Shown here: positions 3,236 to 46,243 of the stretch, one piece after another | Numbering within the stretch: the stretch's first letter is position 1 | How the letters are laid out: each line of letters opens with the position of its first letter | IMG/VR virus record: IMGVR_UViG_2049941000_000114 | Strand: one strand, 5' to 3' | Length of the DNA stretch: 54,051 nucleotides | Origin: an uncultured virus (IMG/VR IMGVR_UViG_2049941000_000114) | Lineage: Duplodnaviria; Heunggongvirae; Uroviricota; Caudoviricetes | Notes under the pieces: model-generated | Told to the model about the DNA's origin: nothing | The model's input: only the letters and a program-made list of their open reading frames with translations | Database searches by the model: none | Position numbers and translations under genes: made by a program

Positions 3236-3724
3236 CTATAAAATCTTTGCAAATGGTGTTACATCACCAACAATTGACTCTCTTTTGATCATTGTCCTGT
3301 TGACGCCGTTCTCGCTATGATTTGTTTCATAGTCCATACCGTCAGCGTAATAATCAAACAAAACCAAATCTATTAACATTCCGAGGTAATTCTTTTCGAT
3401 ATCCTCGTTACGCATTTCTTCGGTGTAACTGTCGGGATAATTTCGGTTCTTGGCAATGTCTAACTTTGCCTTTTCAATTAATTCTTCGATTAAAACGTTT
3501 TTGTCGAGATCGGTAAAAACAATTTCGTTTCCCGAAAGGCCATTTTCGACTTTGTNNNNNNNNNNGCGGTTTTTGGCAATGTCTAACTTTGCCTTTTCAA
3601 TTAATTCTTCGATTAAGACATTTTTGTCGAGATCGGTAAAAACAATTTCGTTGTTTGAAAGCCCGTTTTCGACTTTGTACTGTCTTAATCTTATTTTGAT
3701 TTTTTCGACCAAAGTGTACGACAT
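3236..3724 (-). CDS. Head-tail adaptor (SPP1 gp15-like); internal duplication is a gap artefact
   Basis: RNYP...HSENGVNR motif. Two near-identical alleles flank the gap at 3556-3565. Confidence 0.75.
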   Translation of the reverse strand: MSYTLVEKIKIRLRQYKVENGLSNNEIVFTDLDKNVLIEELIEKAKLDIAKNRXXXXKVENGLSGNEIVFTDLDKNVLIEELIEKAKLDIAKNRNYPDSYTEEMRNEDIEKNYLGMLIDLVLFDYYADGMDYETNHSENGVNRTMIKRESIVGDVTPFAKIL

Positions 3725-4120: not shown

Positions 4121-5191
4121 TTATGAGCAAACCTTAAGAACAGCGACTTCATCCATTCTCTCGTAAGAGGGAAGAACGATCTCTGATACTGTGGTCTTGG
4201 TCTGAACAGGGTCGTTAGAAATGGTAACAGCGATTGCTACACCGTTATCGGTAACAGCAACGTCTGCGGTGGGATTGCCGATAAGAGTTCTTTCTTCGGG
4301 GGTTGTTCCTTTCCATGTATTTCCGAGGGTTCCATCGGGAATAAGGGTAGCGAACTTGTCGGGATAGAACTTTGTAGCAACGCCGGACTCGTTCTTGAAC
4401 TGTTTGGTGTAAACGATAATCGCGATATTGAGTTCGTTAGAGAATACCTCTTTAACTCTTGCATCGGTCATAATAACCGTTGCGGTAGCGTTCTGTGCAA
4501 GAACGTAAGCACGAATCTTGTCGTTCTTCTTAAGTAAGCCCATAGTAGCGGCTGATACGATCATCTTGGTAGGTCTTGAACCTGTCTTTGCTTCTACAGC
4601 ATCGCACATATCCATAACGTCCTTGATGGGGTCGGAATCATCGAGATCATCCCATGCGGAGGTGCCGGTAAGTGCGGTGTAGTTTGTAGCAACCCAAGAG
4701 TTATCGGGGTCGTAGTCGTAAGTGTATGTTGCGTTGTCAGCCGAAATGGAAATCTGCGGTTTACCATTGGTCTGCGGTGCAAGCAACTGAAAGATCATTC
4801 TTTCGGGTACTACGTTAGCGCCATCAACAAGTGTGGTAGCGTCGTCGAAGATACGACGAACAACGTCTTTAGCGTAAGGATCATTGGAATCAAGAACACG
4901 CATAATGTCCTGTTCGTCCTTTTCCTTAACGATCATGGACTCCTTAAAAAAAGCCATCTGTGTTTCGGTAAGGGAGAATCCCTCTCTTGAACGAATTGTA
5001 GATACGGTATCAAAAGCCGAGGGCTTTAACGATACGGGTAAACCTTTTGAAGTCTTAATCCAAGAAAGATCAAGACCCATCTTTTTGCGGGTAGGGAAAA
5101 GACCCTCGCCAAGGTAAGCAATCTTGTTGCTTGCAACTTCGTTGTAAACAAGCGCAAGTCTTTTAGCACTATATACATCAGTTATCTTCAT
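4121..5191 (-). CDS. Major capsid protein (Phage_cap_E-like)
   Basis: 356 aa, YLGEGLFP...GNTWKGTTPEE...SEIVLPSYE; follows scaffold and decoration genes. Confidence 0.9.
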   Translation of the reverse strand: MKITDVYSAKRLALVYNEVASNKIAYLGEGLFPTRKKMGLDLSWIKTSKGLPVSLKPSAFDTVSTIRSREGFSLTETQMAFFKESMIVKEKDEQDIMRVLDSNDPYAKDVVRRIFDDATTLVDGANVVPERMIFQLLAPQTNGKPQISISADNATYTYDYDPDNSWVATNYTALTGTSAWDDLDDSDPIKDVMDMCDAVEAKTGSRPTKMIVSAATMGLLKKNDKIRAYVLAQNATATVIMTDARVKEVFSNELNIAIIVYTKQFKNESGVATKFYPDKFATLIPDGTLGNTWKGTTPEERTLIGNPTADVAVTDNGVAIAVTISNDPVQTKTTVSEIVLPSYERMDEVAVLKVCS

Positions 5192-7375: not shown

Positions 7376-8806
7376 TTATTCAATGTCCTGTGTGTCTGTC
7401 TGATCTTCAACAGGTGGTGCATCTTTGGGATATAAGTATTCCATTCTTTCGCGGCTTTCAATTGCCACCTGTTCGGGATCGCTAAACAAGTTAACTGTCT
7501 TAATAGCACGCTCATTTTCGATACCGCACTTAAGCAATATCTGCAAAACTTCGGCCTTTGTAAGCATATTGTCGAGTTTTGAGCGTGATATTTTAATCTC
7601 AACATCACTCGGTACAAGTGAGAACTTTTTCTCAATCCGAAGTGCGTTAAGGATTATTCTTAAAGCCATGCGTTCAGAACGCTTAAATATAGGCTCTGAC
7701 AGTTCGGCGCGCTTCTCGGAATTATAAAATCCGTTTCTCAAAAGCACCGCGTTTCCTGTATCGCCACCGCTGTTTTTCTGCCTGTTCGACATACCCTGTA
7801 TTTCAAGTAATTTGTCGTAAAGGTCAGATACGGCTACTTGGCTTTCGGTCTGATTGAGTTCCTGTGAAAGAATGTCAACGTCGGCCTTGTTCTCGGAACC
7901 GTTATTTGACTTAACGGCTAAAGCACCCTCGTTACGCATCTTGCGGAACGCAACCTCATCAATTTCACAATTGACGAATTTAACCCATGATGCAACAAAC
8001 TGTTCAATGCCGTTTGAACGGTCGCTTGCCATCTTGTTAAGTTCGTCTGTAATCGAAATTGTGATCTCTATGTCAGAAATTCGTCTTGCATTGTTCGGGT
8101 ATTCAATGATCGGGATTGCACCCATACCATTGATGCCACTCTTAAGGATTTTACCCTCTGCAATCTTGAACCAAAACGAATTTGTGTATACCCAATAAAC
8201 ATTCCTGTATTCGTTATCGCCCTTGATGTATACGCCCATCATCGGGTTATCTTCGCTGTCGTATACAACAAATGCGTCTCTCGGATCCGGCGTGGTTAAG
8301 TAAAACGGCGTTTCATCCATCAAACGGTTTTTCTTTTTGCTGTGTCCGATGTAACGATAAGCCGTACCACATACCGAACGCCAACGGCATAACTCGATAT
8401 CTTCGTACGCTTTATCTTCGCTGTCTGCGTAAGTGTTAAGCCTTGCCACTTCGTCAGACTTTGTTTCGTCCTTGCCGTGTAAAACGTACTGTATGGGTTC
8501 GCCCGCGATCTCGGCTGTCTTTGTCTCGACAATAAACCATGCAAGGTTTTCAACGACCTTGTTGTTTACTTCGGGGCGGTTCTGCTTAACGCGATATAAA
8601 ATCGGCTGATCTCCACGATAGTACCTGTCGAGATACGTGATCTGATCTACGTTGACGCTATGATCTGCAAGCGCCTTTGTAAGTTCATTAACGACGTTAT
8701 CGGCCGTTATACTATCAGCGTTAGTCTTAATGACAAGACGCCCGAAAGAGTTTTCGCAAAGCGCTGTAAACGGTCTGTAGTTTTTCTGTGCATATCTCCA
8801 AGCCAT
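7376..8806 (-). CDS. Portal protein (SPP1 gp6-like)
   Basis: 476 aa, YYRGDQPIL...NNKVVEN...IPIIEYPNN. Confidence 0.92.
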   Translation of the reverse strand: MAWRYAQKNYRPFTALCENSFGRLVIKTNADSITADNVVNELTKALADHSVNVDQITYLDRYYRGDQPILYRVKQNRPEVNNKVVENLAWFIVETKTAEIAGEPIQYVLHGKDETKSDEVARLNTYADSEDKAYEDIELCRWRSVCGTAYRYIGHSKKKNRLMDETPFYLTTPDPRDAFVVYDSEDNPMMGVYIKGDNEYRNVYWVYTNSFWFKIAEGKILKSGINGMGAIPIIEYPNNARRISDIEITISITDELNKMASDRSNGIEQFVASWVKFVNCEIDEVAFRKMRNEGALAVKSNNGSENKADVDILSQELNQTESQVAVSDLYDKLLEIQGMSNRQKNSGGDTGNAVLLRNGFYNSEKRAELSEPIFKRSERMALRIILNALRIEKKFSLVPSDVEIKISRSKLDNMLTKAEVLQILLKCGIENERAIKTVNLFSDPEQVAIESRERMEYLYPKDAPPVEDQTDTQDIE

Positions 8807-9447: not shown

Positions 9448-9490
9448 NNNNNNNNNNTGTTTGTTGTTTTTTGTTGTATTTGTTGCCAAT

Positions 9491-9934: not shown

Positions 9935-10947
9935 TTAAAAACCTCCCCTAAACGGATTGTGTACCGCTGTAACTTCTCCGTTTGTCTTTTTTTCGTCCAT
10001 AATCGCTAATTGTGCCATGCTATCGGCGCTATCGTCGTGTACGTTCTTACCCTCGGCCGTATACATGCTCATATCCTCCATAGCCCGCTGATAATCTGCG
10101 TCACGCTTAAAATATATAAATCCATCGGGTATTTCATCGGGTTCCGGCGTGTATGGCGCCAAAAACTCGTAGTTGCCCTTGATTGCATCTGAATAACCCT
10201 TGATCTTGTCCTCTTTGCTCATTCTCGTCGGCGCGCCTACAGACGTTACGCGGATCCCGTCTATAGCGTTCTCNNNNNNNNNNNNNNNNNNNNNNNNNNN
10301 NNNNNNNNNNNNNNNNNNNNNNNNNNNNNNNNNNNNNNNNNNNNNNNNNNNNNNNNNNNNNNNNNNNNNNNNNNNNNNNNNNNNNNNNNNNNNNNNNNNN
10401 NNNNNNNNNNNNNNNNNNNNNNNNNNAATCGTGCGCTTGTCGTATACCCATCGGCATATCAACCTACGGCCATCGTCCATTTCGTAACAGATCGGCGTTG
10501 ATACGTTATCGCCACCGCCTACAGCGGGGTCTATGACCGCATAGACACGCTTTATAGCCTTGATCTCTACAAGTCCATCAAAGTACCGTAACTCGTCTAC
10601 AGGGAACAGTAAGCCCTCACGTACGTACGGNNNNNNNNNNTGTGAGATAACGCTTTGTAGAGTCCAAAAACAACTGTCCGACACCGTTTCGCTCTATTCG
10701 TGCTTCGCTTGCACCGTTAGTCTTTAACGCGTTAACTACTTTCGGTACCGTGAACTTNNNNNNNNNNATCAAGCGCCGGTATACGCAAGAATTTGTATTC
10801 GGGGTCGTCACCGTACATTCTGCGAAGTCGTTCAAGCGGATCCAATACGTTCCATAACGTTCCGACCATCAACTCTTGGGCGCCATCGTTTTTTCGGTCA
10901 ACCATCTTGTTTAGGTACTCTTGAAACGTTTCCTCCATGCGGACAGG
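9935..10947 (-). CDS. Terminase large subunit C-terminal nuclease pieces, fragmented and partly duplicated
   Basis: VIDPAVGGGD, IERNG and HDDSADSMAQL motifs on gap-separated fragments. Confidence 0.8.
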
Positions 10948-10957
10948 NNNNNNNNNN

Positions 10958-12205
10958 ACCACCGCCTACAGCGGGGTCTATAACCGCATATACACGCTTT
11001 ATGGCCTTTAGTTCCACTAAACCATCGAAATATCGCATTTCGTCTGTAGGGAACAATAAGCCCTCACGTACATACGGCTGTTGCTGATACTTTGCTTGCC
11101 ACTCGGCATTATCAAGCCTTGACCGCATTTCTTTGTAGTATTCCGTCGAAAAACCGTGTAAAACGTAGTCAAAATTGCTTTCGTCGTTTTCGTCAAGCGC
11201 CGGTATTCGCAAGAATTTGTACTCTGGGTCGTCGCCGTACATCCTTCGGAGACGTTCAAGCGGGTCTAACACGTTCCATAACGTTCCGACCATTAACTCT
11301 TGTGCGCCATCGTTCTTACGGTCAACCATCTTGTTCAGATACTCTTGAAACGTTTCCTCCATGCGGACAGGCGATAATGAATGTTGTCTGTCTCTTACAA
11401 GGTCGTCTACGTACAAAAGCCCGTCACTTGATACGTCAATCGCACCCGTCCATGTTGCATCTATACCACGACACGTTATCGTTGCAAAACGATCGGGTTC
11501 ATCAAGCGTTATCGTGAAGTCCTCGGCCGATTTATCGCGTAATAGTTCGTGATTTGGCCAAAAATAGCCGTATATCTCGCCAAATTTGTACTCGCTTGAC
11601 GTCATAAAGTTGAGTAATTCTTTGTAAAAGCCCTTTACAAGCGTTCCGGCGTGACCGCCCATAGCGTTATGGCTGTTCGGATGGCGTAACGCCCGCCAAC
11701 ATAGCCCGAATATGCAAATCGTCGATTTTCCCGTTCGAGACGGTAAACTTACGCCTAAAAACTTGTATTTGCCTTCCTCTAACGCCTGTAACTCCCTCGC
11801 TACAAGCACTAATGACGGTTTTCCCGACTTCGTGTAGCGTCTCGGTGCATAAAACTTTTTCTCGAATGGCCTGTCTTTCTCCATGTAGGCGATAAACGAC
11901 TCAAACACAAAGAACGATTCTTCAAGTATGATCTGCCACCAAAAATCTAATTCCTGTAATTCGGTGCCTGTCTTTAGTCGATACGCGTCAACGGCGTCTA
12001 TCGTCATGCCCTGTACTTCAAACAGCCGCTTTACGTAACTTTTCGCTTTAGCTGTTAGGCTTAAACCGTACTCAACGTCGTGTTCCTCCGTTAAGGCTAT
12101 ATGCGCTAACGCTATGTAGTTATCGTATTGCTCGATAGGCAACATCCCGTCTACCGCCATCGACTCTATGCAATTGACCGCTTCGATTAGTTCGGCACTC
12201 GCCAT
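10958..12205 (-). CDS. terL: Terminase large subunit, ATPase portion
   Basis: Walker A LPSRTGKST, Walker B LLYVDD, GTLW, YQQQP. Confidence 0.92.
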
Positions 12206-12739: not shown

Positions 12740-13044
12740 CCCTCAACCCGATAATCTAACGGGTACTCGCGTTTAAATTCCTCAAATAACTCGTCGGCAT
12801 CATCCCATCGTTTTCGGTCGAGCAATCCTTGCCAATTCTCGTAATACCAATCGGCTGTATGTACCGCGTGACCATCTGCATACGTGACATTGTTAACCGT
12901 CTTATTCGTGTAGTTATTCGTGATCTGCGTATGGCTATCTCGCATTACTTTAGTTCCGCAATACTCGCAATACATAAACTCTCTTTCGCTATCTATCTCT
13001 AAATCTGCGTTGCATTGTGGACATTTTAACGCTATTAATGGCAT
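12740..13044 (-). CDS. TFIIB-type zinc-ribbon protein (moron-like), runs into a gap
   Basis: KCPQC...YCEYCG; similar to the 45559-46158 product. Confidence 0.75.
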
Positions 13045-13359
13045 ACTACGTAGTTCCCCCTATCGTTGTTTTATGCTTAATAAAACCAAATATCGTTATG
13101 CTATGTATATATCTATGGCCTTTTTATATTTTTAAAAATTTTAATTATGGCCTATGGGTTTAAATAATTTTNNNNNNNNNNAGATTTATTTTATATAAAA
13201 ATTTATACAGGTTTTTGGCCGGTATGATCTAAAACGGGTTTTAAATGGTCAACTATTCGTTAAATGTCTCTTTTGCGAAATGTTGATTTTATCTTTAAAT
13301 GCCTGTAAACCCTGTATTTACGCGGGTTTCAGCGTTTTATATCTTTATGGCCTGTTTAA

Positions 13360-13569
13360 CTATTCGCCATTGTTGGCTGTCTGTCCGTCTGTCAAAGACA
13401 ATTTTGATCGTATATCTGTCAATGTTTTAACCGTTGATTTTATTTCGTTGGCTTTGATTGTTCCGTTCCATCCGTGGCGGTAATTAGCATAGGCAATATT
13501 TAAAATCGGCTGTTTGCTGTCCGTCGCCCTTGCCTGTATTCTTTCCGCGTCTTTTTGTTCAATGTTTTT
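13360..13569 (-). CDS. Putative terminase small subunit, C-terminal fragment, allele 1
   Basis: Manual translation KNIEQKDAERIQARATDSKQPILNIAYANYRHGWNG...; upstream of terL. Confidence 0.5.
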   Translation of the reverse strand, partial: KNIEQKDAERIQARATDSKQPILNIAYANYRHGWNGTIKANEIKSTVKTLTDIRSKLSLTDGQTANNGE

Positions 13570-13648
13570 NNNNNNNNNNGTCTTTAAATGCCTGTAAACC
13601 CTGTATTTATGCGGGTTTCAGCGTTTTATATCTTTATGGCCTGTTTAA

Positions 13649-13858
13649 CTATTCGCCGTTGTTCGCGTTTAGTCCGTCTGACAAAGACAAATTAGATCGT
13701 ATATCCGTTAATGTTTTGACCGTGGATTTAATCTCATTCGCTTTAATCGTTCCGTTCCATCCATGCCGGTAATTAGCATATGCAATATTTAAAATCGGCT
13801 GTTTGCTATCCGTCGCCCTTGCCTGTATTCTTTCCGCGTCTTTTTGTTCAATGTTTTT
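13649..13858 (-). CDS. Putative terminase small subunit, C-terminal fragment, allele 2
   Basis: Near-identical copy of 13360-13569 with many third-position differences, which supports this reading frame. Confidence 0.5.
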   Translation of the reverse strand, partial: KNIEQKDAERIQARATDSKQPILNIAYANYRHGWNGTIKANEIKSTVKTLTDIRSNLSLSDGLNANNGE

Positions 13859-14389
13859 NNNNNNNNNNNNNNNNNNNNNNNNNNNNNNNNNNNNNNNNNN
13901 NNNNNNNNNNNNNNNNNNNNNNNNNNNNNNNNNNNNNNNNNNNNNNNNNNNNNNNNNNNNNNNNNNNNNNNNNNNNNNNNNNNNNNNNNNNNNNNNNNNN
14001 NNNNNNNNNNNNNNNNNNNNNNNNNNNNNNNNNNNNNNNNNNNNNNNNNNNNNNNNNNNNNNNNNNNNNNNNNNNNNNNNNNNNNNNNNNNNNNNNNNNN
14101 NNNNNNNNNNNNNNNNNNNNNNNNNNNNNNNNNNNNNNNNNNNNNNNNNNNNNNNNNNNNNNNNNNNNNNNNNNNNNNNNNNNNNNNNNNNNNNNNNNNN
14201 NNNNNNNNNNNNNNNNNNNNNNNNNNNNNNNNNNNNNNNNNNNNNNNNNNNNNNNNNNNNNNNNNNNNNNNNNNNNNNNNNNNNNNNNNNNNNNNNNNNN
14301 NNNNNNNNNNNNNNNNNNNNNNNNNNNNNNNNNNNNNNNNNNNNNNNNNNNNNNNNNNNNNNNCAATCTCACACACGGAGGGTTTAAAC

Positions 14390-14560
14390 ATGATCGCATA
14401 CTACATTATTTATTCATTACGCAACGACGACAAAACGCGCGAAATAAGCATAGACGCGAAAAACCTTAAAAGCGCAAAAAGGAAAATCGGCAAAAAACAC
14501 AAATACAAAGATGGCCGGATGATAAAAATACTTAAGGCCGAAACCATAGCATATTTTTAA
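14390..14560 (+). CDS. Hypothetical small protein, array gene 1 (56 aa)
   Basis: ACGGAGG RBS at 14375, ATG at 14390. Confidence 0.75.
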   Translation: MIAYYIIYSLRNDDKTREISIDAKNLKSAKRKIGKKHKYKDGRMIKILKAETIAYF

Positions 14561-14573
14561 CGGAGGTTAACAC

Positions 14574-14840
14574 ATGACAATCAAAGAATTAAACACACTT
14601 AAAAAGGGCGATCAAGTTTACATCAATACGGGCGCCGGATGGCGTCAGATTATGACATTCAAAAAAGTCACAACGGTGACAACGTTCGGCAAGCATACAT
14701 TGTCAGATTTAATTAATGACAAAATCGATTTTGACAACGGCAAACAGGAAACACAAGCGATTTGCGAATATACCGACGAACGCGGAAAAACCCGCGAAAC
14801 GTTCATAAACCCGCGCAAATTACACAAATACACATTTTAA
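14574..14840 (+). CDS. Hypothetical protein, array gene 2
   Basis: ACGGAGG RBS at 14560. Confidence 0.8.
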   Translation: MTIKELNTLKKGDQVYINTGAGWRQIMTFKKVTTVTTFGKHTLSDLINDKIDFDNGKQETQAICEYTDERGKTRETFINPRKLHKYTF

Positions 14841-14856
14841 CGGAGGATTAAACACC

Positions 14857-15192
14857 ATGAAAAATTATTTTGACTCAATAACAAGCGACCGAAACGATTA
14901 TTTGATCAAGCAACCTAAAAAGGCCGACGTTTTAAACAACGCAAAAATAGCGGGTAACGTTTCCATTTTGGGCGGTAGCAATAATCGCGCGGTAGTTATT
15001 AAAGACGGTAACACGGTTTATTTACAATCATACGACACGATCGTTTTATCGGTCGATATTTTAACCGGCACGATCAAAAAAATGTGGAATGGCTACACGG
15101 CCACAACACTAAAACACGTCAACGCCTTTTTAAAGGGCTTTAACGGTCAACAATTTAACAAAAAATCATGGGAAAATTTCACGGAGGTTTAA
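14857..15192 (+). CDS. Hypothetical protein, array gene 3
   Basis: RBS at 14840; LQSYDTIV...TATTLKHVNAF. Confidence 0.8.
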   Translation: MKNYFDSITSDRNDYLIKQPKKADVLNNAKIAGNVSILGGSNNRAVVIKDGNTVYLQSYDTIVLSVDILTGTIKKMWNGYTATTLKHVNAFLKGFNGQQFNKKSWENFTEV

Positions 15193-15195
15193 AAA

Positions 15196-15396
15196 ATGGT
15201 AGTAAAAATCGCGTCAAAGGTAGACAAAAACGGCAATACATACGGCCTTATATTTGACACCGAAAAGAAAACATTTAATTGTGGTTATTCGGTCGTAGCG
15301 TGGGGAATTGATTTTCACGCAACAAAAAAAGAGATTAAGCAATTTATCGACTACACACTTAAATCCAACGGTTACACGCCGGTCATAAAACTTTAA
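15196..15396 (+). CDS. Hypothetical protein, array gene 4
   Basis: RBS at 15181. Confidence 0.8.
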   Translation: MVVKIASKVDKNGNTYGLIFDTEKKTFNCGYSVVAWGIDFHATKKEIKQFIDYTLKSNGYTPVIKL

Positions 15397-15414
15397 AACG
15401 GAGGTTAACAGCAT

Positions 15415-16128
15415 ATGAAAAAAACAGGTTTAACAGGATACGAAAACGAATTAAAGAAGATCGAACGCGAACGCGCAAAAATACAGGATTTAACAAAAGA
15501 ATACGATTTTAAAGCGGGCGCGTGCGAACGTTTGAGCAACGTTGAAACGGACGCCGAACGCGAAACGATTTTAAACGATCTTAAAAAAGAAAGAGCCGAA
15601 CGCGACGCAATAAGACAGGAAAACGAAAAGATCAATATAAAAATTAAGTGTTTGCAACACAACGCAATATTAACATTTACGCGCGAAATAATCCCGATAA
15701 TATCGGAGGTTTTAAAACCGTACTATAACAAGCCATTAGGCGAAAAGACCCGCGCAAAAATCCGCGACGAATTAAAAGCCCGCTATAATATAGCGTTTTA
15801 TTTCAAAGACGCGCGCGAAATGGTTTTTGTTTTCCTTAATGATGCCGGATATAGTTACGGCGCGTCAATTAGCGTCTATGCAAGTTACACCACGCCGTTT
15901 TTGACAGATAACAAAATAAATGATCTGTCAACGGTCAATATACACACGTATAAACGGCCATATATAGAAAACGTCGATAAACACGTTAAAGCGCTTTATA
16001 AGGCATACGACGACGCCAAAAAAGCATACGACGATTTTTGCATAAAGGCGGGTATTTATACGGGGTTATCGGTGGACGGTTTAAAGGATATCGACAAATA
16101 CAATCCTAAATTTAACGGCATTATTTAA
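15415..16128 (+). CDS. Hypothetical coiled-coil protein, array gene 5
   Basis: RBS at 15398; 237 aa. Confidence 0.8.
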   Translation: MKKTGLTGYENELKKIERERAKIQDLTKEYDFKAGACERLSNVETDAERETILNDLKKERAERDAIRQENEKINIKIKCLQHNAILTFTREIIPIISEVLKPYYNKPLGEKTRAKIRDELKARYNIAFYFKDAREMVFVFLNDAGYSYGASISVYASYTTPFLTDNKINDLSTVNIHTYKRPYIENVDKHVKALYKAYDDAKKAYDDFCIKAGIYTGLSVDGLKDIDKYNPKFNGII

Positions 16129-16142
16129 CGGAGGGCGAAAAA

Positions 16143-16343
16143 ATGAATAGAACAATATATATAAATTTCACGGATTTAAACGATGAAACACAAGACCATA
16201 TTTTATCACTTGCAATTGAAGATGTTCGAAAAAATGAATTAAAAGAAATAGTCAAAACATACGGAAAAGAACGCGCCGACGAAATAATAACAGAACGCGC
16301 CGAACGTAAAATATATGAATATGATTATATTTTTAATGTATAG
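16143..16343 (+). CDS. Hypothetical protein, array gene 6
   Basis: RBS at 16128. Confidence 0.8.
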   Translation: MNRTIYINFTDLNDETQDHILSLAIEDVRKNELKEIVKTYGKERADEIITERAERKIYEYDYIFNV

Positions 16344-16356
16344 GGAGGGCGACAAC

Positions 16357-16560
16357 ATGAAAAATTATAAATCTTTAGAAATGCAAACAGCATACAAAAA
16401 CGGAGGTTTTCGCGAACGTTTCGCAATGGAAAACGGCAATAAAACAACGTTATATATTAACGGGCATAAAATTTTTAAATTTACATATAGCCTTTATACG
16501 GCATATCAAGACGCAAACGGGGCGACATATGACGCAACCGCTAAACAATGGATATATTAA
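16357..16560 (+). CDS. Hypothetical protein, array gene 7
   Basis: GGGAGG RBS at 16343; start corrected to ATG at 16357. Confidence 0.8.
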   Translation: MKNYKSLEMQTAYKNGGFRERFAMENGNKTTLYINGHKIFKFTYSLYTAYQDANGATYDATAKQWIY

Positions 16561-16574
16561 CGGAGGTTTTGAAA

Positions 16575-16817
16575 ATGAAAAAATATTTTATCGCCAAATC
16601 GGTTAAAGATCATGAGTATTTATACAACAAAGCAAGCGCCATTTTGGTACCAACGGCAAGCGCGCGCAAAATATGCGACGCCTTAAACAATATCAAATAT
16701 CAATTGAAAACCGGCGAAATATGGCACATACACGAAAACGATTTTTATATTGATGATTATATACCGTTTGAAATAAAGCGCGTAACAAATTCAAAATTTA
16801 CTATTTCATACCGATAA
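16575..16817 (+). CDS. Hypothetical protein, array gene 8
   Basis: RBS at 16560; start corrected to ATG at 16575. Confidence 0.8.
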   Translation: MKKYFIAKSVKDHEYLYNKASAILVPTASARKICDALNNIKYQLKTGEIWHIHENDFYIDDYIPFEIKRVTNSKFTISYR

Positions 16818-16831
16818 ACGGAGGTTAAACA

Positions 16832-17119
16832 ATGAATAACTACATTTTTACAGATAAAAACAACAACCATTATAAAAGGATTGATAAAAGGCAAGCGAAA
16901 CGCGCTTACGACGCCGGCAAAACGATTGTTTTATGCCCTTGTAATTTTCGGCCGTTTGGAATGTGGGCGCCGGAGGTAGATATCAACAAAGAGGATTATA
17001 AAACGCGCGGTTATGACCCCGCCGACATGGATTTTAAAAAGCGTTTAATGTATTTCGAATACTACAATTGCACGAACACGGAAACCGGCCGTTATAGTGC
17101 CTTTTATATACAGGTTTAA
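16832..17119 (+). CDS. Hypothetical protein, array gene 9
   Basis: RBS at 16818; LCPCNFRP...YYNC...ETGRY. Confidence 0.8.
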   Translation: MNNYIFTDKNNNHYKRIDKRQAKRAYDAGKTIVLCPCNFRPFGMWAPEVDINKEDYKTRGYDPADMDFKKRLMYFEYYNCTNTETGRYSAFYIQV

Positions 17120-17163
17120 CGGCAAACATTGAAAACAAAAAACATTTACGGAGGTTTAACAAC

Positions 17164-17895
17164 ATGATCACAACAACAACCAAAGAAACACTTAAACAGG
17201 CCAAACAGGAATTAAACAAAATTTTCGATTATATCAAAGAGAATAACGACGCGTTAACAGGTTATACCGATTTAAAACTACATGATGCAAGTTTTTATTG
17301 TTACCGCGATATGCAAAACGATTTTCCGTTATGTTACGCGACATATTCACACAATGATGATTTTTACGACTATTTTTATCGTTTTTGTGAATCGTCGTTT
17401 GATCAATTCACGGAGGATTTAAACGAAAAACGAATTGATTTTGAAAAAACAATTGATCGTATCGGCCACACGTCAAAGTTTTATTGTTACGCCGGCCACG
17501 ATGAGAACGCCGAAACAATGATAAATGATTTTATTTATAGTGAATACGGCGACGAATACGAAATAAAAAACGGCGCGTTTTCATTTTCGCATTATTACGG
17601 CGTTTCTGAAATAATCAACGGTCTGGAATATTTTGTTAAAAATGCCTTTAACGATTTTAAAGCCAAAACAGCCGACGCAATAACAATTTATAAATACATT
17701 GAGGATTTTAAACAAAATCAAATTGAGTATTTCAAAGAGTATTTAACATTTTACGAGGATGATTTAAAAGCCGAAAAAGACGCGGAAACGGCACAATATA
17801 ACGCCGACGCGGAAACGGCGCGCAATATTGCGGATGCGTACAAAATACCCGCCGAAACAATGCAAACTTTAAAAAGCGTTATTTACGCATATTAA
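17164..17895 (+). CDS. Hypothetical acidic, Tyr/Phe-rich protein, array gene 10
   Basis: RBS at 17148; 243 aa. Confidence 0.8.
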   Translation: MITTTTKETLKQAKQELNKIFDYIKENNDALTGYTDLKLHDASFYCYRDMQNDFPLCYATYSHNDDFYDYFYRFCESSFDQFTEDLNEKRIDFEKTIDRIGHTSKFYCYAGHDENAETMINDFIYSEYGDEYEIKNGAFSFSHYYGVSEIINGLEYFVKNAFNDFKAKTADAITIYKYIEDFKQNQIEYFKEYLTFYEDDLKAEKDAETAQYNADAETARNIADAYKIPAETMQTLKSVIYAY

Positions 17896-17910
17896 ACGGA
17901 GGTCGAAACT

Positions 17911-18234
17911 ATGAATAATATTTTATTTAATATGCCCGTTTTACCCGTCGAAAATGAGCCGTTATTTACTTTTGATCTTTACAAAGACGAAAACACCGAC
18001 CACAAAACCGGCGAAAAGTATCATTTATGCGTCATTTCACAATGGAGTGATAAAACCGTTAAAGCGCGCGAAATCGGGCATAAATCCTTTTATATTAACG
18101 GCGCTTTTTCGGATATACGCGGATTTTTTGACCGAATAAAAAACAATGACAACGAAATGAAAAAGATTTTTGATAAATCAGAAAACACGCGTTTATATAT
18201 CACAAAATCGGAAAACTACAAAGTGACATTTTAA
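17911..18234 (+). CDS. Hypothetical protein, array gene 11
   Basis: RBS at 17896. Confidence 0.8.
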   Translation: MNNILFNMPVLPVENEPLFTFDLYKDENTDHKTGEKYHLCVISQWSDKTVKAREIGHKSFYINGAFSDIRGFFDRIKNNDNEMKKIFDKSENTRLYITKSENYKVTF

Positions 18235-18248
18235 CGGAGGTTTAAACC

Positions 18249-18544
18249 ATGAATTTTATTGCGATCTTAAAAACAGACGGGGATTTTTACCCGATAGCAA
18301 ATTTATATACAGATTATGAGACATACAACAACGCGACATTTTCGCCGGACGTCGAAACGGTCGAAATAATACCGTTGTCGATTAAGGGCAAAACGTACGC
18401 CGATAAAAAGAATTTTTTCCGTGATCTTGCTATACAATACAGCAACGCGGATTTAAGCGGCATATCATACGGAGAAACGGCTATAATAACGGGCTTTTTT
18501 GAGAAAAACGCGCGCCGTTTTGGATTGTTAAACGAATTACGCGA
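18249..18544 (+). CDS. Hypothetical protein, array gene 12 (3' end in gap)
   Basis: RBS at 18234; GKTYADKK...SYGE...RFGLLNELR. Confidence 0.8.
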
Positions 18545-18629
18545 NNNNNNNNNNTCCGAAATGCCTACAAAGCTGTCGTAGGTTCATCCATTCGGTTGTA
18601 CCTGTNNNNNNNNNNAAACTGTATAATTT

Positions 18630-18655
18630 AAGGGGCTTTATATATGCCCCTTTTT
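18630..18655 (+). terminator. Intrinsic terminator closing the plus-strand array
   Basis: aagggg/cccctt stem then a T-tract. Confidence 0.7.
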
Positions 18656-18659
18656 ATTG

Positions 18660-19470
18660 TGGCCGTTATCGTTTAGGGTTTTAACGTTGTGCAATTCGGC
18701 GGGCGGTCGTTTCGGTACCTTGACAATTTAACATCAAATAAACTATGTTTAAGATAGTATACTTTTATAAGCCCCTTTTAGGCTTTATTTGTGATACTTA
18801 AAACAGGCGATAAACCCGCGTTAATTTTGGGCGTTTATGCCCTTTTACGGGCATACGTAGACAGGCGACAAAACGCGCCGTTATGATCTTAAAACGGCCT
18901 GTATTGCGTTTTATCATCCTATAGCGTATAAATGCCCGTTTGCGGTCGTTTTGATCGAATACAGGGCAATTTATAACCGCCGTTTATGGCCGCTTATAGC
19001 CGATTTAAGGCCGTTAAAGCCCGTTGATGATATCCGGCACAATAAACCGATTAAACCCCGTTTAAAAGCGTTTAAGGCCATTAAAAATATAGTGTGTTTT
19101 GTTGTTTGGCTTTATCGCATACCCGCGTTTATTTGCCCGTAAAGGCGTTTGAAATGGTTTTAACGTTAAAATATACCTTAAATGTATAAACCCGCCTATA
19201 TGACCGCGTAAACGTGTTTAAAAGCCTGTTCGCGTACGGCGTACAAAATGCCCGCGTTTAGTGTTGTGTGTTGATCATCCCGCGCCAATAGTATAACTTT
19301 ATTAAGTCCGTTATAAAGTACGCTATAAATTGACTTTTACGGTCGGTACTTATAAGGTTTTTAGGTACATTTGTTCGGTCAAAAGTTCTTTGCAAGTTCG
19401 TTGCAAGTTTTTCAGAAATCGTAAAATCGAGTTTTGGCTGTGGAAAATGATAGGGGGGGGGTATTTTTTG
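18660..19470. other. Non-coding block rich in short inverted and direct repeats, ending in a G9 run
   Basis: No credible ORF; hairpin at 18836-18855; CCCGCGTT three times; G9 at 19453-19461. Confidence 0.6.
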
Positions 19471-19478
19471 GTTTACTC

Positions 19479-20231
19479 TTAAAAATTTTTCATCGAAGCA
19501 ATCGCTTTTTCTAATGGCATTTTTTTGTTTATAACTCTTACATACAGTTTGCCGTACGATATGTTTTCAAATTTGCATATTTCAGACAAGCACATCTGCT
19601 TTCCTTTATACAAGTAGCGGTGTGTGTTTCTGCGGTTTTTGGGCTGTTCCGAAAGAGGAACCCACCTACAATTGCTTGGTGAATACCCTTTGTCGTTGTC
19701 TATACGATCTATCGAAAGTCCTTTTTCCCATCCGTTTTTTACAGACCATTCAAAGAAATTGTCAAACCCCTTCTGACCACTCCATTCTTCGCATACCTTA
19801 ATGCCACGCTCACCATAATCGTAAAATGCGATATGTTTAGGATTTTCGCATCTTTCGTGCATACCTCTATATTTTTGGTAAAGTGGGTGTTTGGTTTTAG
19901 TTTCTACACCGTACAAAGAAAGGTTTTCTCTTTTTCTCCGTCCGGCTCTACTCTTTACGCTATCAATTCTTTTCTTGCTTACGTCGGATATTACGCAATT
20001 GCTCGGATTATACCCCATCCCCGTGTCAATTCTGCTAACCGAAAGACCCTGTCGGTACCCATTATCCATGCACCATTTTATAAAATTTTCCCTATTACTG
20101 TGCCAGTCCTCACACATGGTTATGCCTTTAGCACCATAATTACTGTAAATGATACTTCGTGGGTCGTAGCATCTGCGTTTTATGTCTCTATATAATTGAA
20201 TTAATGATTTTCTGTCCGTTTGTTCCTTCAT
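19479..20231 (-). CDS. HNH homing endonuclease with duplicated nuclease module
   Basis: Two YG.(K/R)GI..C..W...RID...GY.PSNC units plus a C-terminal HTH-like segment. Confidence 0.85.
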   Translation of the reverse strand: MKEQTDRKSLIQLYRDIKRRCYDPRSIIYSNYGAKGITMCEDWHSNRENFIKWCMDNGYRQGLSVSRIDTGMGYNPSNCVISDVSKKRIDSVKSRAGRRKRENLSLYGVETKTKHPLYQKYRGMHERCENPKHIAFYDYGERGIKVCEEWSGQKGFDNFFEWSVKNGWEKGLSIDRIDNDKGYSPSNCRWVPLSEQPKNRRNTHRYLYKGKQMCLSEICKFENISYGKLYVRVINKKMPLEKAIASMKNF

Positions 20232-20359
20232 TTCCTATTCCTCAAATGCCCCTCTCACACGTCAGATTTGACCGAGACGGGGCATTAAATGTTTTAATCG
20301 AATATTTTAGTCTTGACCACCTTTACGCGCCTTAAACGACGTTTCTGGGTGGGTGTCCT

Positions 20360-20587
20360 TCATTCACCCCACGCATACGGGTCGTCGCGGCACTCCATAA
20401 CAGCATCCTGTATATCCATACCTTTCTTAACGACTCTGTTATACATGGCGCTGTACTTAAACCCGAAATGCCTACAAAGCTGTCGTAGGTTCATCCATTC
20501 GGTTGTACCTGTGGCGTCAGTAACTTGGTATCTCATTTTCGTCTGGCCTGTCGATTTGTACGTTGAGGGTGTGTTTGCTATTGCCAT
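20360..20587 (-). CDS. Small HTH-like DNA-binding protein
   Basis: MNLRQLCRHFGFKYSAMYNRVVKKGMDIQDAV resembles the C-termini of the HNH proteins. Confidence 0.6.
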   Translation of the reverse strand: MAIANTPSTYKSTGQTKMRYQVTDATGTTEWMNLRQLCRHFGFKYSAMYNRVVKKGMDIQDAVMECRDDPYAWGE

Positions 20588-26131: not shown

Positions 26132-26659
26132 CTATTCCTCTTTTATTTCTTCGTTTAAGATTTTTGCGTATCGTTTCTTGTATTCCTTTGGCGGCAATTT
26201 GCGTTCGCTTGTGAACATTGTCATTTGTTCAAATTGGTGTCGTTCTACTTCTCTTTGGCCACCCCACGCAAAACCACCGCATTTTTCTTCTTCGCATACC
26301 CAACCGCTTGCTTTTAATGATGTGCCTAATTCAGATTCAAGTATGTAGGTTATGATCTTTTGATAACCCATTTCTTTACCAATTCGGGCGCATCGTGCAT
26401 ATAATATTGAACAAGCGTTGTATGTGCCATCTGTACATAATCTCAAAACTTCAAGGATATTATCGTTATCAATCATTCGACTTTGCGGGTGTCCGACGAT
26501 TGCCACGCCACATAACCTATCGCCATCCCAAACTGATAACGAAAACTTATGACCTTGAACCTTATCGTGATGCCGATGATGGTTTATCACATATTCATTC
26601 GCGTTCTTTAGACTTATAGGTTTAATTGTCAGCGCGTTCTTCGATTCCCTTCGGTTCAT
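26132..26659 (-). CDS. XF1762-like protein
   Basis: HHRHH..VQGHKFS...EVLRLCTDG..NACS.LY...ITYILESE.G.SLKASGW. Confidence 0.75.
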   Translation of the reverse strand: MNRRESKNALTIKPISLKNANEYVINHHRHHDKVQGHKFSLSVWDGDRLCGVAIVGHPQSRMIDNDNILEVLRLCTDGTYNACSILYARCARIGKEMGYQKIITYILESELGTSLKASGWVCEEEKCGGFAWGGQREVERHQFEQMTMFTSERKLPPKEYKKRYAKILNEEIKEE

Positions 26660-32692: not shown

Positions 32693-32865
32693 GCTGTTAC
32701 ACTCCTTTGATATTTGATTTTGTGTTCAAGTTTCTTACATTCGAAACAAATAACTCTTTGCGACGTTAAACGGTATCGCTCCGTAGGTTCCTTGCAACGT
32801 TCGCATTGATATACGTATTTGAGTTTCCCGAAATCGCTGTATGTCGTTCCTAAAAGTCTACTCAT
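32689..32865 (-). CDS. Small zinc-finger protein
   Basis: CERC...CFEC; probable ATG at 32865. Confidence 0.55.
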   Translation of the reverse strand: MSRLLGTTYSDFGKLKYVYQCERCKEPTERYRLTSQRVICFECKKLEHKIKYQRSVTA

Positions 32866-33169
32866 ACGTTGCACCCTCCAATTCGTATATGATGCTTTTT
32901 CCTGTCGATAACGCGTATTCATGCTCAATCTTTGCACCGTGACTTTCTCGCCAATCCTTAAGCATATAGATACAATCGCAAGTCTCTAAAAACCTTAATG
33001 AATTGCAGATATAGTCAATGTATTTTGTATCTTTAGGAAAAAGAATTAATGCTGACGCCGGATTTATAACGGTAAAGTCAAGTTTTGTAAGGTACTGTTC
33101 GGCCTGTTTAAACTTGTTTAAGTAGTTATCATCACCCGTTATCTTTCCGCTTATGTATGCCTTTAACAT
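32858..33169 (-). CDS. DUF4406-family protein (nucleoside deoxyribosyltransferase-like)
   Basis: YISGKITG...INPA...CD.IYML.DW.ES.GAKIE. Confidence 0.85.
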   Translation of the reverse strand: MLKAYISGKITGDDNYLNKFKQAEQYLTKLDFTVINPASALILFPKDTKYIDYICNSLRFLETCDCIYMLKDWRESHGAKIEHEYALSTGKSIIYELEGATYE

Positions 33170-33178: not shown

Positions 33179-33858
33179 CTATAATTCGTATTTCGTACCG
33201 TTTCGTGCGTAATCGACAAATACGGCATCCGGCACGATTGATTTGATTTCTTCGACAATCTCGGTCGGATTTGTAGAGCCAAAGCCTAAATGAATGGCGA
33301 TTACACTTTTCATACTTGGCGTTAAATTCGTCTGAATGATGCCTTTACAGGTTTCAAGTGAACAATGGCCACCTATCTTATGATTAAAGTTCGGTGCGTC
33401 CATATCGACGTATTTTTCTTGGTAATTGACCTCGACCAAAAAGTGATTGATCTTACACGCTTTGAATGAGTACCGGCAAAAACTTAAATCCGTAAGGTAC
33501 AAAATTGACTCACCATTTATGTGCCTTATAAGCGCACCGTAACTGTTTATGTCGCCGTGTGGATTTGTAAACGCCTGTATGTAATACCCACCCATATACA
33601 TACTTGCCCGCGCTTTGTCGGTATCGTAAGGGGTGAGCATTGGTACGCCCAACCCCTCATATTCATGCCGATATTTGGCGTGATCACCTAACCGTGAGAA
33701 TGACTTATAAAGCAACCGACTATTTTACTCAAATCAAAATTGAGTGCTATCTTGGTTTCTTTTAATGCAATACCGCAATCAAGAATTAACACTTCACCGT
33801 CACAATCAATCAGATAAGTGTTTCCATCCGAGCCGGAACCCAATATGTTCAATCTCAC
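33179..33858 (-). CDS. YycJ/PhnP-like MBL-fold metallohydrolase split by 5 extra nt at the HxHxDH motif
   Basis: LGSGSDGN...LDCG...SHSHG* then DHAK...H.D...YLTD...EVNY...GH...IHL in another frame. GTG start at 33858 overlaps the upstream TGA. Joined length 224 aa. Confidence 0.85.
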
Positions 33859-34418
33859 GTAACCACCCCCTTTTCTTCGGCAAATTTCCATACAAAACCG
33901 CCCGCTTGTTTTCTTCCTTGCTCACCGCTTGCAACCTGTAATATGTTGCGTTGACAAACTCCTGTATAATTACTTGCCAACGTTGCGTTTGCATATTCCG
34001 CGATAAAGTCTCCCGCAAGTGTGTATTGAATAACTCTTTTAGGTCGAACATATCGGTTATAGCGGTTCATACCCTCAAATAGTCGTTTGTTCTGCTTATA
34101 TGTTTCTGCAACATGCTTTGCCGGATGAATTATTTCCAAATTGTCAACACGGTTATTTTGCTTATTCCCGTCCTTATGATGAACGTGATAACCTTTAGGT
34201 ATTCCACCTATAAAAGTTTGCGCGACAAGACGATGAAGTCTGTATGTATGCGAAAACCCTTTTGAGTCTTTCAATACGTGCGTAAAATACCAACCGTTTT
34301 TATTGGTTTCTTTGGTTATCCTCCACCCAAAACGTTTTGTGTAATGTTTGAGATTTCCCATGTTGGAGATTTGGTACAATCCCTCAAATCCTTTTACGTC
34401 ACGCCATTCTTCATTCAT
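33855..34418 (-). CDS. NUMOD4-HNH-NUMOD1 homing endonuclease
   Basis: EEWRDVKGFEGLYQISNMG...HRLVA...HHKDGNKQNNRVDNLE...AGGFVWKF. Confidence 0.9.
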   Translation of the reverse strand: MNEEWRDVKGFEGLYQISNMGNLKHYTKRFGWRITKETNKNGWYFTHVLKDSKGFSHTYRLHRLVAQTFIGGIPKGYHVHHKDGNKQNNRVDNLEIIHPAKHVAETYKQNKRLFEGMNRYNRYVRPKRVIQYTLAGDFIAEYANATLASNYTGVCQRNILQVASGEQGRKQAGGFVWKFAEEKGVVT

Positions 34419-35406: not shown

Positions 35407-36004
35407 TTTGCGTTTCCTTTCTTTTTGTGAAGTATTCAATTACTTTTTCTTTATCCGTTTCCATGTTTAAGTGATATAAAAATGTTGATCGTGGTATCGC
35501 AAGTTTTTTTGACCATTCGGATATCGTAAGTTCCTCCCCTTTGTAAGAGATTGTGTTGTTTACCTTCCTTATTGGCGTTGACAGCGCTCTTTCAATCGGC
35601 CAATGCCTTTGGCCAATTCTTGTGTATAGCGTGTCTTGTGAAATTCCCAATTTGTCAGCCCATTCTGCCAATGTGTGAGTTTCCCCGTTGTATGCAATGA
35701 AACGATTTGAAGTTCGGTTGTTACTTTGAACTTTTACTGAAACCCATCGACAATTTGAAGGTTCATAATTTCCATCGCCATTAATTCTGTCAATAGTGCA
35801 ACCACGTTTTGGGGCGTTGTAGTCGTAGCCGTTAGCCAACGCCCACTCGCGAAACCGCAAATAACCATCCTTTCCCGTCCACTCGTCACATACTTTGATT
35901 CCTTTAAGCGCATAACTTGTAGCATTGGGAGCCTTGAAATCGTGACAACGGCGGTGCATGGCTCGCCATACTGTTTTTAATCGATCTCGTTTACTTGCGG
36001 CCAT
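35387..36004 (-). CDS. HNH homing endonuclease
   Basis: GIKVCDEW...TIDRI..DGNYEPSNCRW...Q.NNR...TLAEWA. Confidence 0.88.
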   Translation of the reverse strand: MAASKRDRLKTVWRAMHRRCHDFKAPNATSYALKGIKVCDEWTGKDGYLRFREWALANGYDYNAPKRGCTIDRINGDGNYEPSNCRWVSVKVQSNNRTSNRFIAYNGETHTLAEWADKLGISQDTLYTRIGQRHWPIERALSTPIRKVNNTISYKGEELTISEWSKKLAIPRSTFLYHLNMETDKEKVIEYFTKRKETQNGRTEK

Positions 36005-36010
36005 GTTTGT

Positions 36011-37906: not shown

Positions 37907-37910
37907 GTTC

Positions 37911-39470: not shown

Positions 39471-39480
39471 NNNNNNNNNN

Positions 39481-42342: not shown

Positions 42343-42365
42343 GATTCCTCCTACAAAAGTTTCCA

Positions 42366-42578: not shown

Positions 42579-42600
42579 CGATTTACTCCTTTCATTTCGT

Positions 42601-46195: not shown

Positions 46196-46243
46196 TTACT
46201 TGACGTGTAATGTATAGGGATTTGGGTTGTATTCTATCCACAT
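46196..46243 (-). pseudogene. 15-codon stump of the NPNP gene
   Basis: MWIEYNPNPYTLHVK*; 46216-46265 is identical to 53003-53052. Confidence 0.75.

Follow-up and report, generated by a model that had tools for sequence, protein, structure and literature searches.

Why should a phage whose genes lie mostly on the minus strand carry, beside its packaging genes, a dense block of small plus-strand genes, nearly all of them opened by the same letters? The question is raised by a 54,051-nucleotide (nt) scaffold of an uncultured tailed phage (IMG/VR record IMGVR_UViG_2049941000_000114, Caudoviricetes), the whole of which is called the window below. Twelve tightly packed genes, g1 to g12, run from 14390 to ~18631 on the plus strand (Table 1), and the sequencing runs that carry this array are cattle gut or rumen metagenomes. 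An earlier sequence-only reading of the window had proposed an immediate-early island of anti-defence or takeover genes, in which the shared junction between genes might also allow cassette-wise exchange. We find it probable that the array is a self-contained, inverted accessory operon, a 'moron-type' or hyperplastic unit, whose private junction doubles as the joint at which whole genes are inserted or deleted.

The junction motif and the frame of the operon

Firstly, the genes of the array appear to share more than a generic ribosome-binding site. The twelve open reading frames (ORFs) of the sequence-only reading are all present, each with GGAGG placed 7-10 nt before its ATG, as are the eleven copies of ACGGAGG that it located, all on the plus strand, and the single GGGAGG, which belongs to g7. 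The window holds 21 copies of ACGGAGG against 3.25 expected (standard deviation 1.84, maximum 10; 0 of 100 shuffles reach 21), and 13 of the 21 are inside the array, 11 ahead of genes and 2 within g7 (16400) and g10 (17410). The motif was also said to be often fused to the previous stop codon, and this holds: the exact string TAACGGAGG occurs at five junctions (g2, g3, g6, g8 and g12), TAA abuts the motif at g9 and g11 and is one base off at g5, and a 44-nt spacer precedes g10, all other intergenic gaps being 3-18 nt. Of the GGAGG start sites, 11 of the 12 in the array carry the AC prefix, versus 3 of the 22 in the rest of the window (Fisher p = 1.3e-5). Because AC is also present at g1 (which has no upstream gene), at g4 (whose site lies in g3) and at g10 (behind its spacer), it is more than a leftover of TAA. 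Aligned on GGAGG the junction reads T-T-(T/A)-A-A-C-GGAGG-T-T-(T)-A-A-A-(C/A), with information extending ~5 nt upstream and ~7 nt downstream. Judged by its letters, ACGGAGG is a Shine-Dalgarno site set within an apparently homogenised junction of ~12-20 nt, made up of a stop codon, a T-rich run, AACGGAGG, a T/A-rich spacer and the ATG.

Copies of CGGAGG with T/A-rich tails also occur inside genes, at 15702-15708 (g5), 16400-16406 (g7), 16969-16975 (g9) and 17410-17416 (g10). These four internal copies compare with 0.54 expected over the whole array, and none has a start codon at a usable distance. The copy in g10 is closely like the g3/g4 junction. The internal copies may be relics of fused cassettes, or chance.

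The array is closed by a single terminal hairpin, in agreement with the sequence-only reading; a simple terminator scanner missed it owing to the size of its loop. Within 12740-20300, 22 promoter-like matches were found versus 23.6 in shuffles, none of them at a junction, and gaps of 3-18 nt (one of 44) make the junctions too short for a promoter. Rfam gave nothing on the same interval at E <= 1, and no inverted repeats were found at the array junctions. The promoter of the array, together with the start of the divergent packaging operon, probably lies within the 505-nt run of N directly upstream of g1. A 1916-nt contig from X1, the likely source sample, carries 13271-13569 and 14366-14549 on the same strand, separated by 1274 letters, so that the 505 N stand for ~1.3 kb. 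As this contig carries both a packaging-side gene fragment and g1, the array is physically linked to the packaging operon and diverges from it. At the other end g12 is broken at 18545-18615 by ten N, 51 nt and ten N, and 50 of the 51 nt are identical to 20463-20512. With this interrupting block omitted, the frame of g12 would run for 5 further codons to a TAA at 18629-18631, overlapping the hairpin.

The gene across the N run had been taken for a putative small terminase. It does occupy the small-terminase position at the head of the packaging operon, so the adjacency stands; the window holds only a C-terminal fragment of it, belonging to a conserved protein of ~210 residues, and the identification itself finds no family match. 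The fragment shows 65% identity to residues 144-195 of the protein encoded at L017:3856-4488, a related locus described below (tblastn), at 13563-13408 and again at 13852-13697, the second hit falling in a 91% identical copy (13581-13858) that follows a run of ten N. The full-length ~210-residue proteins of L017 and of a second related locus, L021, match no PHROG or Pfam family.

Single-gene skips in close relatives

Secondly, close relatives of the array differ from it by single genes. blastn of the array against 50,697 phage records gave no match, and scans of IMG/VR for close relatives using g10 or g5 alone gave none. Contigs of X1 and of X5, X6 and X10, from three other studies, could be placed on 12740-18544 at 80% likeness. 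In these contigs g2, g6, g8 or g11 is skipped, one gene at a time, with breakpoints in or at the stop/Shine-Dalgarno/start junction. The skip of g2 in X10 (joint 14554>14835, side 178 letters) has the same 12 letters, TTTTAACGGAGG, on either side, and X1 shows a variant skip of the same gene. g6 is skipped in X5 (two contigs), X6 and X10 at joint 16129>16344, with 9 identical letters, GGAGGGCGA, on either side. For g8 the joint in X10 (16573>16831, side 24 letters) has 6 identical letters, AATGAA, on either side, and that in X6 (16579>16857) encloses 17 other letters; in another contig of X10 g8 is retained. The skip of g11 in X10 (joint 17919>18254, 2 letters between, side 147 letters) lies in two start-codon regions. 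The sequence-only reading had called for a comparison of gene order in relatives, looking for swaps at the junction, and had suggested the junction as a site of cassette exchange; the comparison yields single-gene skips, three of whose breakpoints fall in 12, 9 and 6 identical letters, and to the extent that contigs can tell it supports cassette exchange at the junction.

The one odd site in the array is in keeping with this. g6 is the only gene that ends in TAG, and it is followed by the GGGAGG of g7; in contigs without g6, g7 acquires the ACGGAGG of g6. Since g7 has a standard site wherever g6 is absent, the GGGAGG would be the scar of a cassette junction.

In the reading that we favour, one promoter, which would lie in the N run, and the one terminator observed frame the twelve genes. 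The operon lies between an HNH endonuclease gene, at the end of the early and middle genes, and the packaging operon, and is transcribed away from the packaging genes, each of its genes having its own strong Shine-Dalgarno site set in the homogenised junction. Because the same letters recur between unrelated genes, the junction could serve as a short-homology joint for the deletion or insertion of a whole gene, possibly helped by the RecT-type annealase of the phage itself. g1, g3, g4, g5, g7, g9, g10 and g12 would form the retained core, and g2, g6, g8 and g11 the variable cassettes. The prevalence of the families fits a core with cassettes: g10 has 41 homologues and g5 22, while g11 has only 2 homologue clusters among 5.8 billion proteins; for g2 there are 36 representative homologues. 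The g5 and g10 lists both contain contigs of 11326, 54098, 54868, 13683, 24049 and 9005 nt, and with six coinciding sizes these are probably the same contigs.

The locus in distant relatives

Thirdly, in two distant relatives the place of the array is again taken by inverted small genes. Large terminase (TerL) comparison retrieved 43 related loci from IMG/VR, and tblastn of the 12 products against them gave matches in L021 only (g3 and g5). Upstream genes were listed for five of the 43 loci (L015, L017, L019, L020 and L021). L021 (TerL 60% identical) has an HNH gene, ~900 nt of noncoding DNA, five counter-oriented genes (a g3 homologue first, then a g5 homologue), the ~210-residue protein and TerL, and L017 (TerL 75%) has at least six counter-oriented small genes, none related to the twelve, one of which encodes a GP88-family protein. 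In nucleotide comparison of the flanks of the window with L021 or L017, only the packaging-side fragment and the HNH gene match. By gene order, then, the position of the array appears to be conserved and its content variable. Each inverted array also has a private junction dialect, AACGGAGG here, AT(A/T)AGGAGGA in L017 and AAAGGGG(A/G)T in L021.

The divergent array/packaging region of L021 (L021:3956-4383) contains three copies of CAAGGCACAAAA, a possible operator. As an operator common to the window this candidate was rejected: there are 10 two-mismatch matches versus 6.9 expected, none near the array, and the matching region of the window is N.

Elsewhere the families of the array occur in a different setting. 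Long co-oriented runs of small genes surround the distant homologues, both those of g10, at 13 metagenome loci and 1 genome locus, and those of g5, at 13 IMG/VR loci, and g3, g5 and g10 homologues are found in ordinary co-oriented small-gene regions upstream of terminase. A scan of GTDB genomes with the g10 alignment returned one distant 3-kb contig only. g3 and g5 homologues are adjacent in 3 of the 13 g5 loci (L058, L059 and L069), in distant phages at 33-41% identity, a conserved neighbourhood suggesting that g3 and g5 may be a functional pair; the local CpG ratio is raised at these three g3-g5 loci (1.4-1.5 versus 0.8-1.0). A g8 homologue lies near a g5 homologue once (L064), and none of the array genes other than g3, g5, g8 and g10 recurs at the g5 or g10 homologue loci.

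A compositional island extending into the noncoding flank

Finally, the array differs from its surroundings in composition. The sequence-only reading had described it by eye as A-rich with many CG dinucleotides, and the counts agree: A makes up 38.6% of the array, GC content is 0.37 versus 0.40-0.44 in the flanking genes, and the observed/expected ratio of CpG is 2.34 versus 1.39-1.46 in the rest of the window. The ratios of AG (0.48 versus 0.85-0.88) and CT (0.28 versus 0.67-0.73) are low; a simple codon effect does not account for this, as the coding strand is poor in both. The signature is found in all 12 genes, the variable ones included (CpG 1.9-3.0, AG+CT 0.30-0.53), and in the noncoding flank 18616-19478 (CpG 1.82, AG 0.64, CT 0.47); among arginine codons, 47 of 53 in the array are CGN versus 199 of 368 elsewhere. 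The array and flank of L021 share it (CpG 2.53, AG 0.28, CT 0.33, in a backbone with CpG 1.18), while the L017 array is without it (CpG 1.16). Among 1892 sliding 1.5-kb windows drawn from 70 metagenome, genome and IMG/VR loci, 14 have CpG >= 1.9 with AG+CT <= 0.55, all of them on the L021 contig. In other phages the g10-family genes match their own surroundings in composition (CpG 0.72-1.25), so the signature belongs to the locus and not to the gene families. Its persistence in two phages with TerL 60% identical would indicate an ongoing local process rather than a fading foreign origin. A link of the AG/CT-poor signature to the Mom-like DNA modification gene in the early region was considered and discarded, as five related (incomplete) records, including the signature-bearing L021 contig, gave no Mom-like match.

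The word CCG(CG)T(T/A)(T/A)A occurs 10 times in ~540 nt of the flank that separates the terminator from the HNH gene, 8 times on the same strand, versus ~1.3 per kb elsewhere, and the matching flank of L021 (L021:712-1623) has similar words of the type CCCGTT(T/A)A. The reverse complement of the flank word, TTAACGG, is part of the gene junction. These words make the flank a candidate packaging-site or protein-binding region.

A more elaborate reading, which we hold to be quite improbable, would treat the array and its flank as an integron-like cassette platform without an integrase, a counter-defence locus shaped at the level of both protein and DNA. The private stop/Shine-Dalgarno junction would recruit and shed ORFan genes by short-homology recombination, and the strand-symmetric composition of the island (CpG 2.3-2.5x, AG/CT 0.3-0.5x), seen in two phages with TerL 60% identical, might have arisen because DNA that must work before other protection is in place has to evade a host nuclease or modification system.

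An ordinary ribosome-binding site as an alternative

Several observations weigh against a junction that doubles as an exchange joint. Uniform strong sites are also seen in co-oriented arrays of other phages (L013 and L059), so that uniformity alone is not special. Outside the start-codon region, no letters are shared at the g11 joint or at one of the g8 joints. All joints were read from metagenome contigs placed at 80% likeness, with one side of 24 letters and several of 41, so that some may mix strains, and the contigs do not give the direction of each event, insertion or deletion. Deletions between direct repeats of 6-12 nt can arise by slippage without any 'designed' joint. One stretch was compared, with no control region, and greater plasticity than in the rest of the genome therefore cannot be shown. 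In three of the five listed loci (L015, L019 and L020) the small genes are co-oriented and an inverted block is missing; nor is there one upstream of the terminase of Clostridium phage Maintenon (TerL 40% identical).

In an ordinary reading the motif would simply be the optimal ribosome-binding site for a Bacillota-type host, the skips by-products of slippage between any short repeats, and the block the usual pre-terminase region inverted. GGAGG at 7-10 nt is canonical, the arrays of L013, L017 and L059 are equally uniform, and the gene families occur in ordinary co-oriented regions elsewhere. However, the AC prefix is kept at the array sites and not at the other start sites of the window, although a C before GGAGG adds no pairing with the usual 16S 3' end, and each inverted array has a dialect of its own, which copying or homogenisation fits better than one shared optimum. 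Neither the compositional island, matched by 0 of the 1892 sliding windows outside the L021 contig, nor the variation of four different genes, each by exactly one gene unit, is expected of an ordinary signal. We therefore regard this explanation as unlikely, though it deserves real weight.

Comparison with known exchange systems

The closest described mechanism is found in T4-type phages, whose hyperplastic regions undergo modular shuffling of promoter-early stem-loop (PeSL) cassettes (Arbiol et al., 2010, PMC2839356; Comeau et al., 2014, PMC4122927). These papers describe small, mostly ORFan, non-essential genes separated by copies of a short conserved regulatory motif, at which insertions, deletions and replacements between close relatives fall; the joints of the array fall in or at its motif too. 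While the PeSL unit, in the same descriptions, provides each gene with a promoter and a terminator hairpin, the unit of the array is a ~12-20-nt stop/Shine-Dalgarno/spacer junction within one operon. As this unit contains a translation start signal only, with neither promoter nor hairpin, the array would be a variant of the PeSL system and not a member of it. The phages differ as well, those with PeSLs being T4-like and the present one looking temperate and siphovirus-like. Mosaic joints mediated by ribosome-binding sites were not described among the papers listed by literature searches, which is not proof of their absence.

Integron arrays (IntI, attI, attC) offer a second parallel, in that small, co-oriented, promoterless cassettes are gained or lost singly at a repeated joint. 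Unlike integrons, however, the array has no attC-like imperfect inverted repeats at its junctions and no integrase within 12740-20300; the only integrase is the phage's own, 25 kb away.

Morons, as defined by Juhala, Hendrix and colleagues, are extra units inserted between core genes, with their own terminator and a distinct composition. The array resembles those of lambdoid and other temperate phages in lying between two core blocks, in having its own terminator and a composition unlike that of its neighbours, and in being on the strand of the lysogeny module. This likeness invites the more specific proposal of a moron operon expressed from the prophage that benefits the lysogen, for example by superinfection exclusion or host fitness. 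The lysogeny module is the only other plus-strand block, and with the array on that strand lytic read-through cannot drive it. Against this stand the size of the array, as morons have one or two genes and twelve tiny genes in one operon are unlike most described examples, the lack of a PADLOC defence family at meaningful score, the absence of membrane or secretion features by eye, and the occurrence of homologues elsewhere in lytic-strand blocks. The upstream DNA in which a promoter of its own would lie is N. A prophage-expressed moron operon is in our view distinctly unlikely, and the inverted accessory operon with an exchange joint remains the reading that we prefer.

Products and the proposed early island

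None of the 12 products matched a named family at meaningful score in Pfam, PHROGs, NCBIfam or PADLOC, the PHROG matches being to families of unknown function only. The best PADLOC match, PbeC (E = 5e-4, 16.8 bits), lies over a coiled coil and is sub-threshold noise. In these general libraries 0 of the 12 products match an anti-defence, defence, structural or metabolic family (a library devoted to anti-defence proteins was not among them), and no helix-turn-helix (HTH) regulator associated with the array was found in PHROGs, Pfam or NCBIfam. g3 matches phrog_4264 at 5.6e-9, and an Atlas feature search places it with DUF8033 (PF26096) clusters at 0.93 (213 of 256 features; 30 of 30 matches), while Pfam gave no DUF8033 match at E <= 0.1; a literature search on DUF8033 found no paper. 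Residues 1-38 of g2 (14574-14690) match repeated stretches of very large proteins, for example 12 stretches in the 2911-residue protein P0072, and g2 may begin with a small module of a repeat or binding type.

AlphaFold models were made for two of the 12 products, g10 (predicted local distance difference test, pLDDT, 90.1) and g5 (pLDDT 85.8). Residues are conserved across homologues, and together with the confident models this indicates that the proteins are real. The best Foldseek matches in the PDB have E = 2.1 for g10 and E = 0.21 for g5. The best wide VIA matches were dismissed as background, helical for g10 (Z = 6.3, root mean square deviation 1.2 over 42 residues) and due to the coiled-coil hairpin for g5 (Z = 8.9 over 90 residues). 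The BFVD matches of the g5 model are all to gut siphovirus proteins that are uncharacterised (best 1.7e-10). Of the products, eight are basic, three acidic (among them g10, with a net charge of -21 and an isoelectric point (pI) of 4.5) and one neutral. The products are small, soluble, phage-only proteins; to judge by gene size, turnover and context, their most likely role would be to act on the host or on competing elements, in counter-defence, takeover or exclusion.

The sequence-only reading was more specific, taking the array for an anti-defence or host-takeover island of the immediate-early kind, the first to be expressed once the DNA has entered, like the T5 pre-early, T7 class I and SPO1 takeover genes. 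The first-entering regions of these phages carry strongly translated small host-takeover and anti-defence genes; the phages are virulent, and the regions, placed in the terminal redundancy or at the end that enters first, have many early promoters. The array is like them in its dense small genes with very strong ribosome-binding sites. It encodes many phage-only proteins, rare ORFans among them, that would be strongly translated to judge by their sites, it is an independent transcription unit with its own terminator, and its single-gene turnover among wild relatives is what arms-race genes would show. The acidity of g10 can be added, as DNA-mimic inhibitors are often strongly acidic, but 8 of the 12 proteins are basic, and the matches to known counter-defence families (Pfam, PHROGs, NCBIfam; all 12 products) or informative folds (g5 and g10) that were looked for did not appear. 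Unlike T5, T7 and SPO1, the phage has an integrase and repressor-like genes and is temperate by gene content, and the array has room for one promoter only. It adjoins the packaging genes, and in lambda-like cos phages the packaging-gene end is packaged first and injected last. In addition, the homologues of g3, g5 and g10 are co-oriented in ordinary pre-terminase regions. As the phage looks temperate and the block adjoins packaging genes, the first-entering analogy is not supported, and we consider an immediate-early island rather unlikely. With the prophage-expressed moron operon unlikely as well, the rest of the probability goes to other roles or to none in particular.

Another likeness is to the clusters of anti-defence genes and diversity hotspots of phages (for example bioRxiv 10.1101/2024.10.15.618418). 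The array shares with them a fixed position between conserved genes and variable small accessory genes among relatives, and differs in that searches of Pfam, PHROGs and NCBIfam found in it neither a known anti-defence family nor an HTH regulator associated with it.

Phage context and scaffold quality

The gene content of the window, a tailed-phage set mostly on the minus strand (PHROG scan, 55 ORFs), looks like that of a temperate, siphovirus-like phage. Besides the genes in Table 1, the scan found recombination and replication genes (SbcC-like, a DnaD-like loader and SSB), and a gene resembling nucleoside 2-deoxyribosyltransferase is found at 32858-33169. This 54-kb phage has four genes for HNH or homing endonucleases, all on the minus strand (19479-20231, 33855-34418, 35387-36004 and 41908-42369). 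In L017 the large terminase (L017:5718-8507) has 929 residues, ~340 of them extra and inserted after the start of the ATPase part, in what looks from the sequence like an intein or a homing-endonuclease insertion.

Table 1. Features of the window in and around the array and in the rest of the phage (aa, amino acids; site, position of the ACGGAGG motif; E values from the PHROG scan)
Feature	Position	Strand	Remarks
g1	14390-14560	+	56 aa, pI 10.0; ACGGAGG at 14375-14381
g2	14574-14840	+	88 aa; site 14560; variable cassette; phrog_9662 (unknown function)
g3	14857-15192	+	111 aa; site 14840; DUF8033-like
g4	15196-15396	+	66 aa; site 15181, within last codons of g3
g5	15415-16128	+	237 aa; site 15398; coiled-coil hairpin and small alpha/beta domain (model)
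g6	16143-16343	+	66 aa, acidic; site 16128; variable cassette; sole gene ending in TAG
g7	16357-16560	+	67 aa; sole gene with GGGAGG
g8	16575-16817	+	80 aa; site 16560; variable cassette
g9	16832-17119	+	95 aa; site 16818
g10	17164-17895	+	243 aa, net charge -21; site 17148
g11	17911-18234	+	107 aa; site 17896; variable cassette, rare ORFan
g12	18249 to ~18631	+	~103 aa; site 18234
Intrinsic-terminator-like hairpin	18630-18659	+	7 bp, 9-nt loop, then U-run; -15.8 kcal/mol, z = -2.0
Noncoding flank	18660-19478	.	between terminator and HNH gene
HNH endonuclease	19479-20231	-	phrog_3377, 7.3e-74; last gene of minus-strand early/middle block, converges on array
N run	13859-14363	.	505 nt; directly upstream of g1
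Conserved ~210-aa protein, C-terminal part	13408-13569	-	heads packaging operon, small-terminase position
Large terminase	10898-12205		PHROG scan
Portal	7376-8806		PHROG scan
Major head protein	4121-5191		PHROG scan
Mom-like DNA modification protein	26132-26659	-	phrog_1384, 1.2e-36; early region
RecT-like annealase	34411-35439		PHROG scan
cro-like gene	42366-42689		lysogeny module; PHROG scan
Repressor-like gene	42735-43118	+	lysogeny module; PHROG scan
Gene without assigned function	43358-44074	+	lysogeny module
Integrase	44078-45253	+	phrog_1

The window contains 29 runs of N, 24 of them of exactly 10 N (for example 13570-13579, 9448-9457, 47934-47943, 3556-3565, 10948-10957 and 53053-53062, besides the interrupted block 18545-18615), while the array from 14364 to 18544 is free of N. 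Many of the 10-N runs are flanked by copies, 79-100% identical, of preceding or distant segments: 13581-13858 resembles 13292-13569 at 91%, 18556-18605 equals 20463-20512, and 53003-53052 equals 46216-46265. The window looks like a metagenome scaffold that strings together strain variants and short repeat pieces, and gene calls beside the 10-N runs are unreliable. The large terminase is seemingly split (10898-12205 and 9935-10684), with N runs and duplicates in between. Partial second copies of the RecT-like and SbcC-like genes (39418-41129 versus 34411-38674) are 67-95% identical, in pieces split by 10-N runs, and are either a real duplication or contigs of a second strain scaffolded in.

With N runs on both sides of the array (13859-14363 and 18545-18554) and duplicates at so many others, it might be supposed that scaffolding created the counter-orientation or the array itself. 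However, the independent X1 contig runs from the packaging-side fragment into g1 with their relative orientation unchanged, contigs of the three other studies cover the array in the same order, and the inverted layout recurs in L021 and L017, whose contigs are uninterrupted. We judge an assembly artefact to be highly improbable.

Implications

It is an old question, raised for linker or boundary sequences and for PeSLs, how ORFan genes can come and go in phages with expression kept intact, and here a bare ribosome-binding junction appears to be enough. As the junction is where wild relatives from separate cattle studies differ, by exactly one gene unit at a time, a new gene would land with its start signal already fitted. 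The junction thereby offers a concrete, testable rule for finding swappable accessory genes in uncultured phages, and the variable g2, g6, g8 and g11, together with the conserved g3-g5 pair, are candidates for counter-defence or host-control screens. The composition signature, which is strand-symmetric, spans coding and noncoding DNA and is found in two distant relatives, may be the mark of a selective or mutational process that acts locally in phage genomes.

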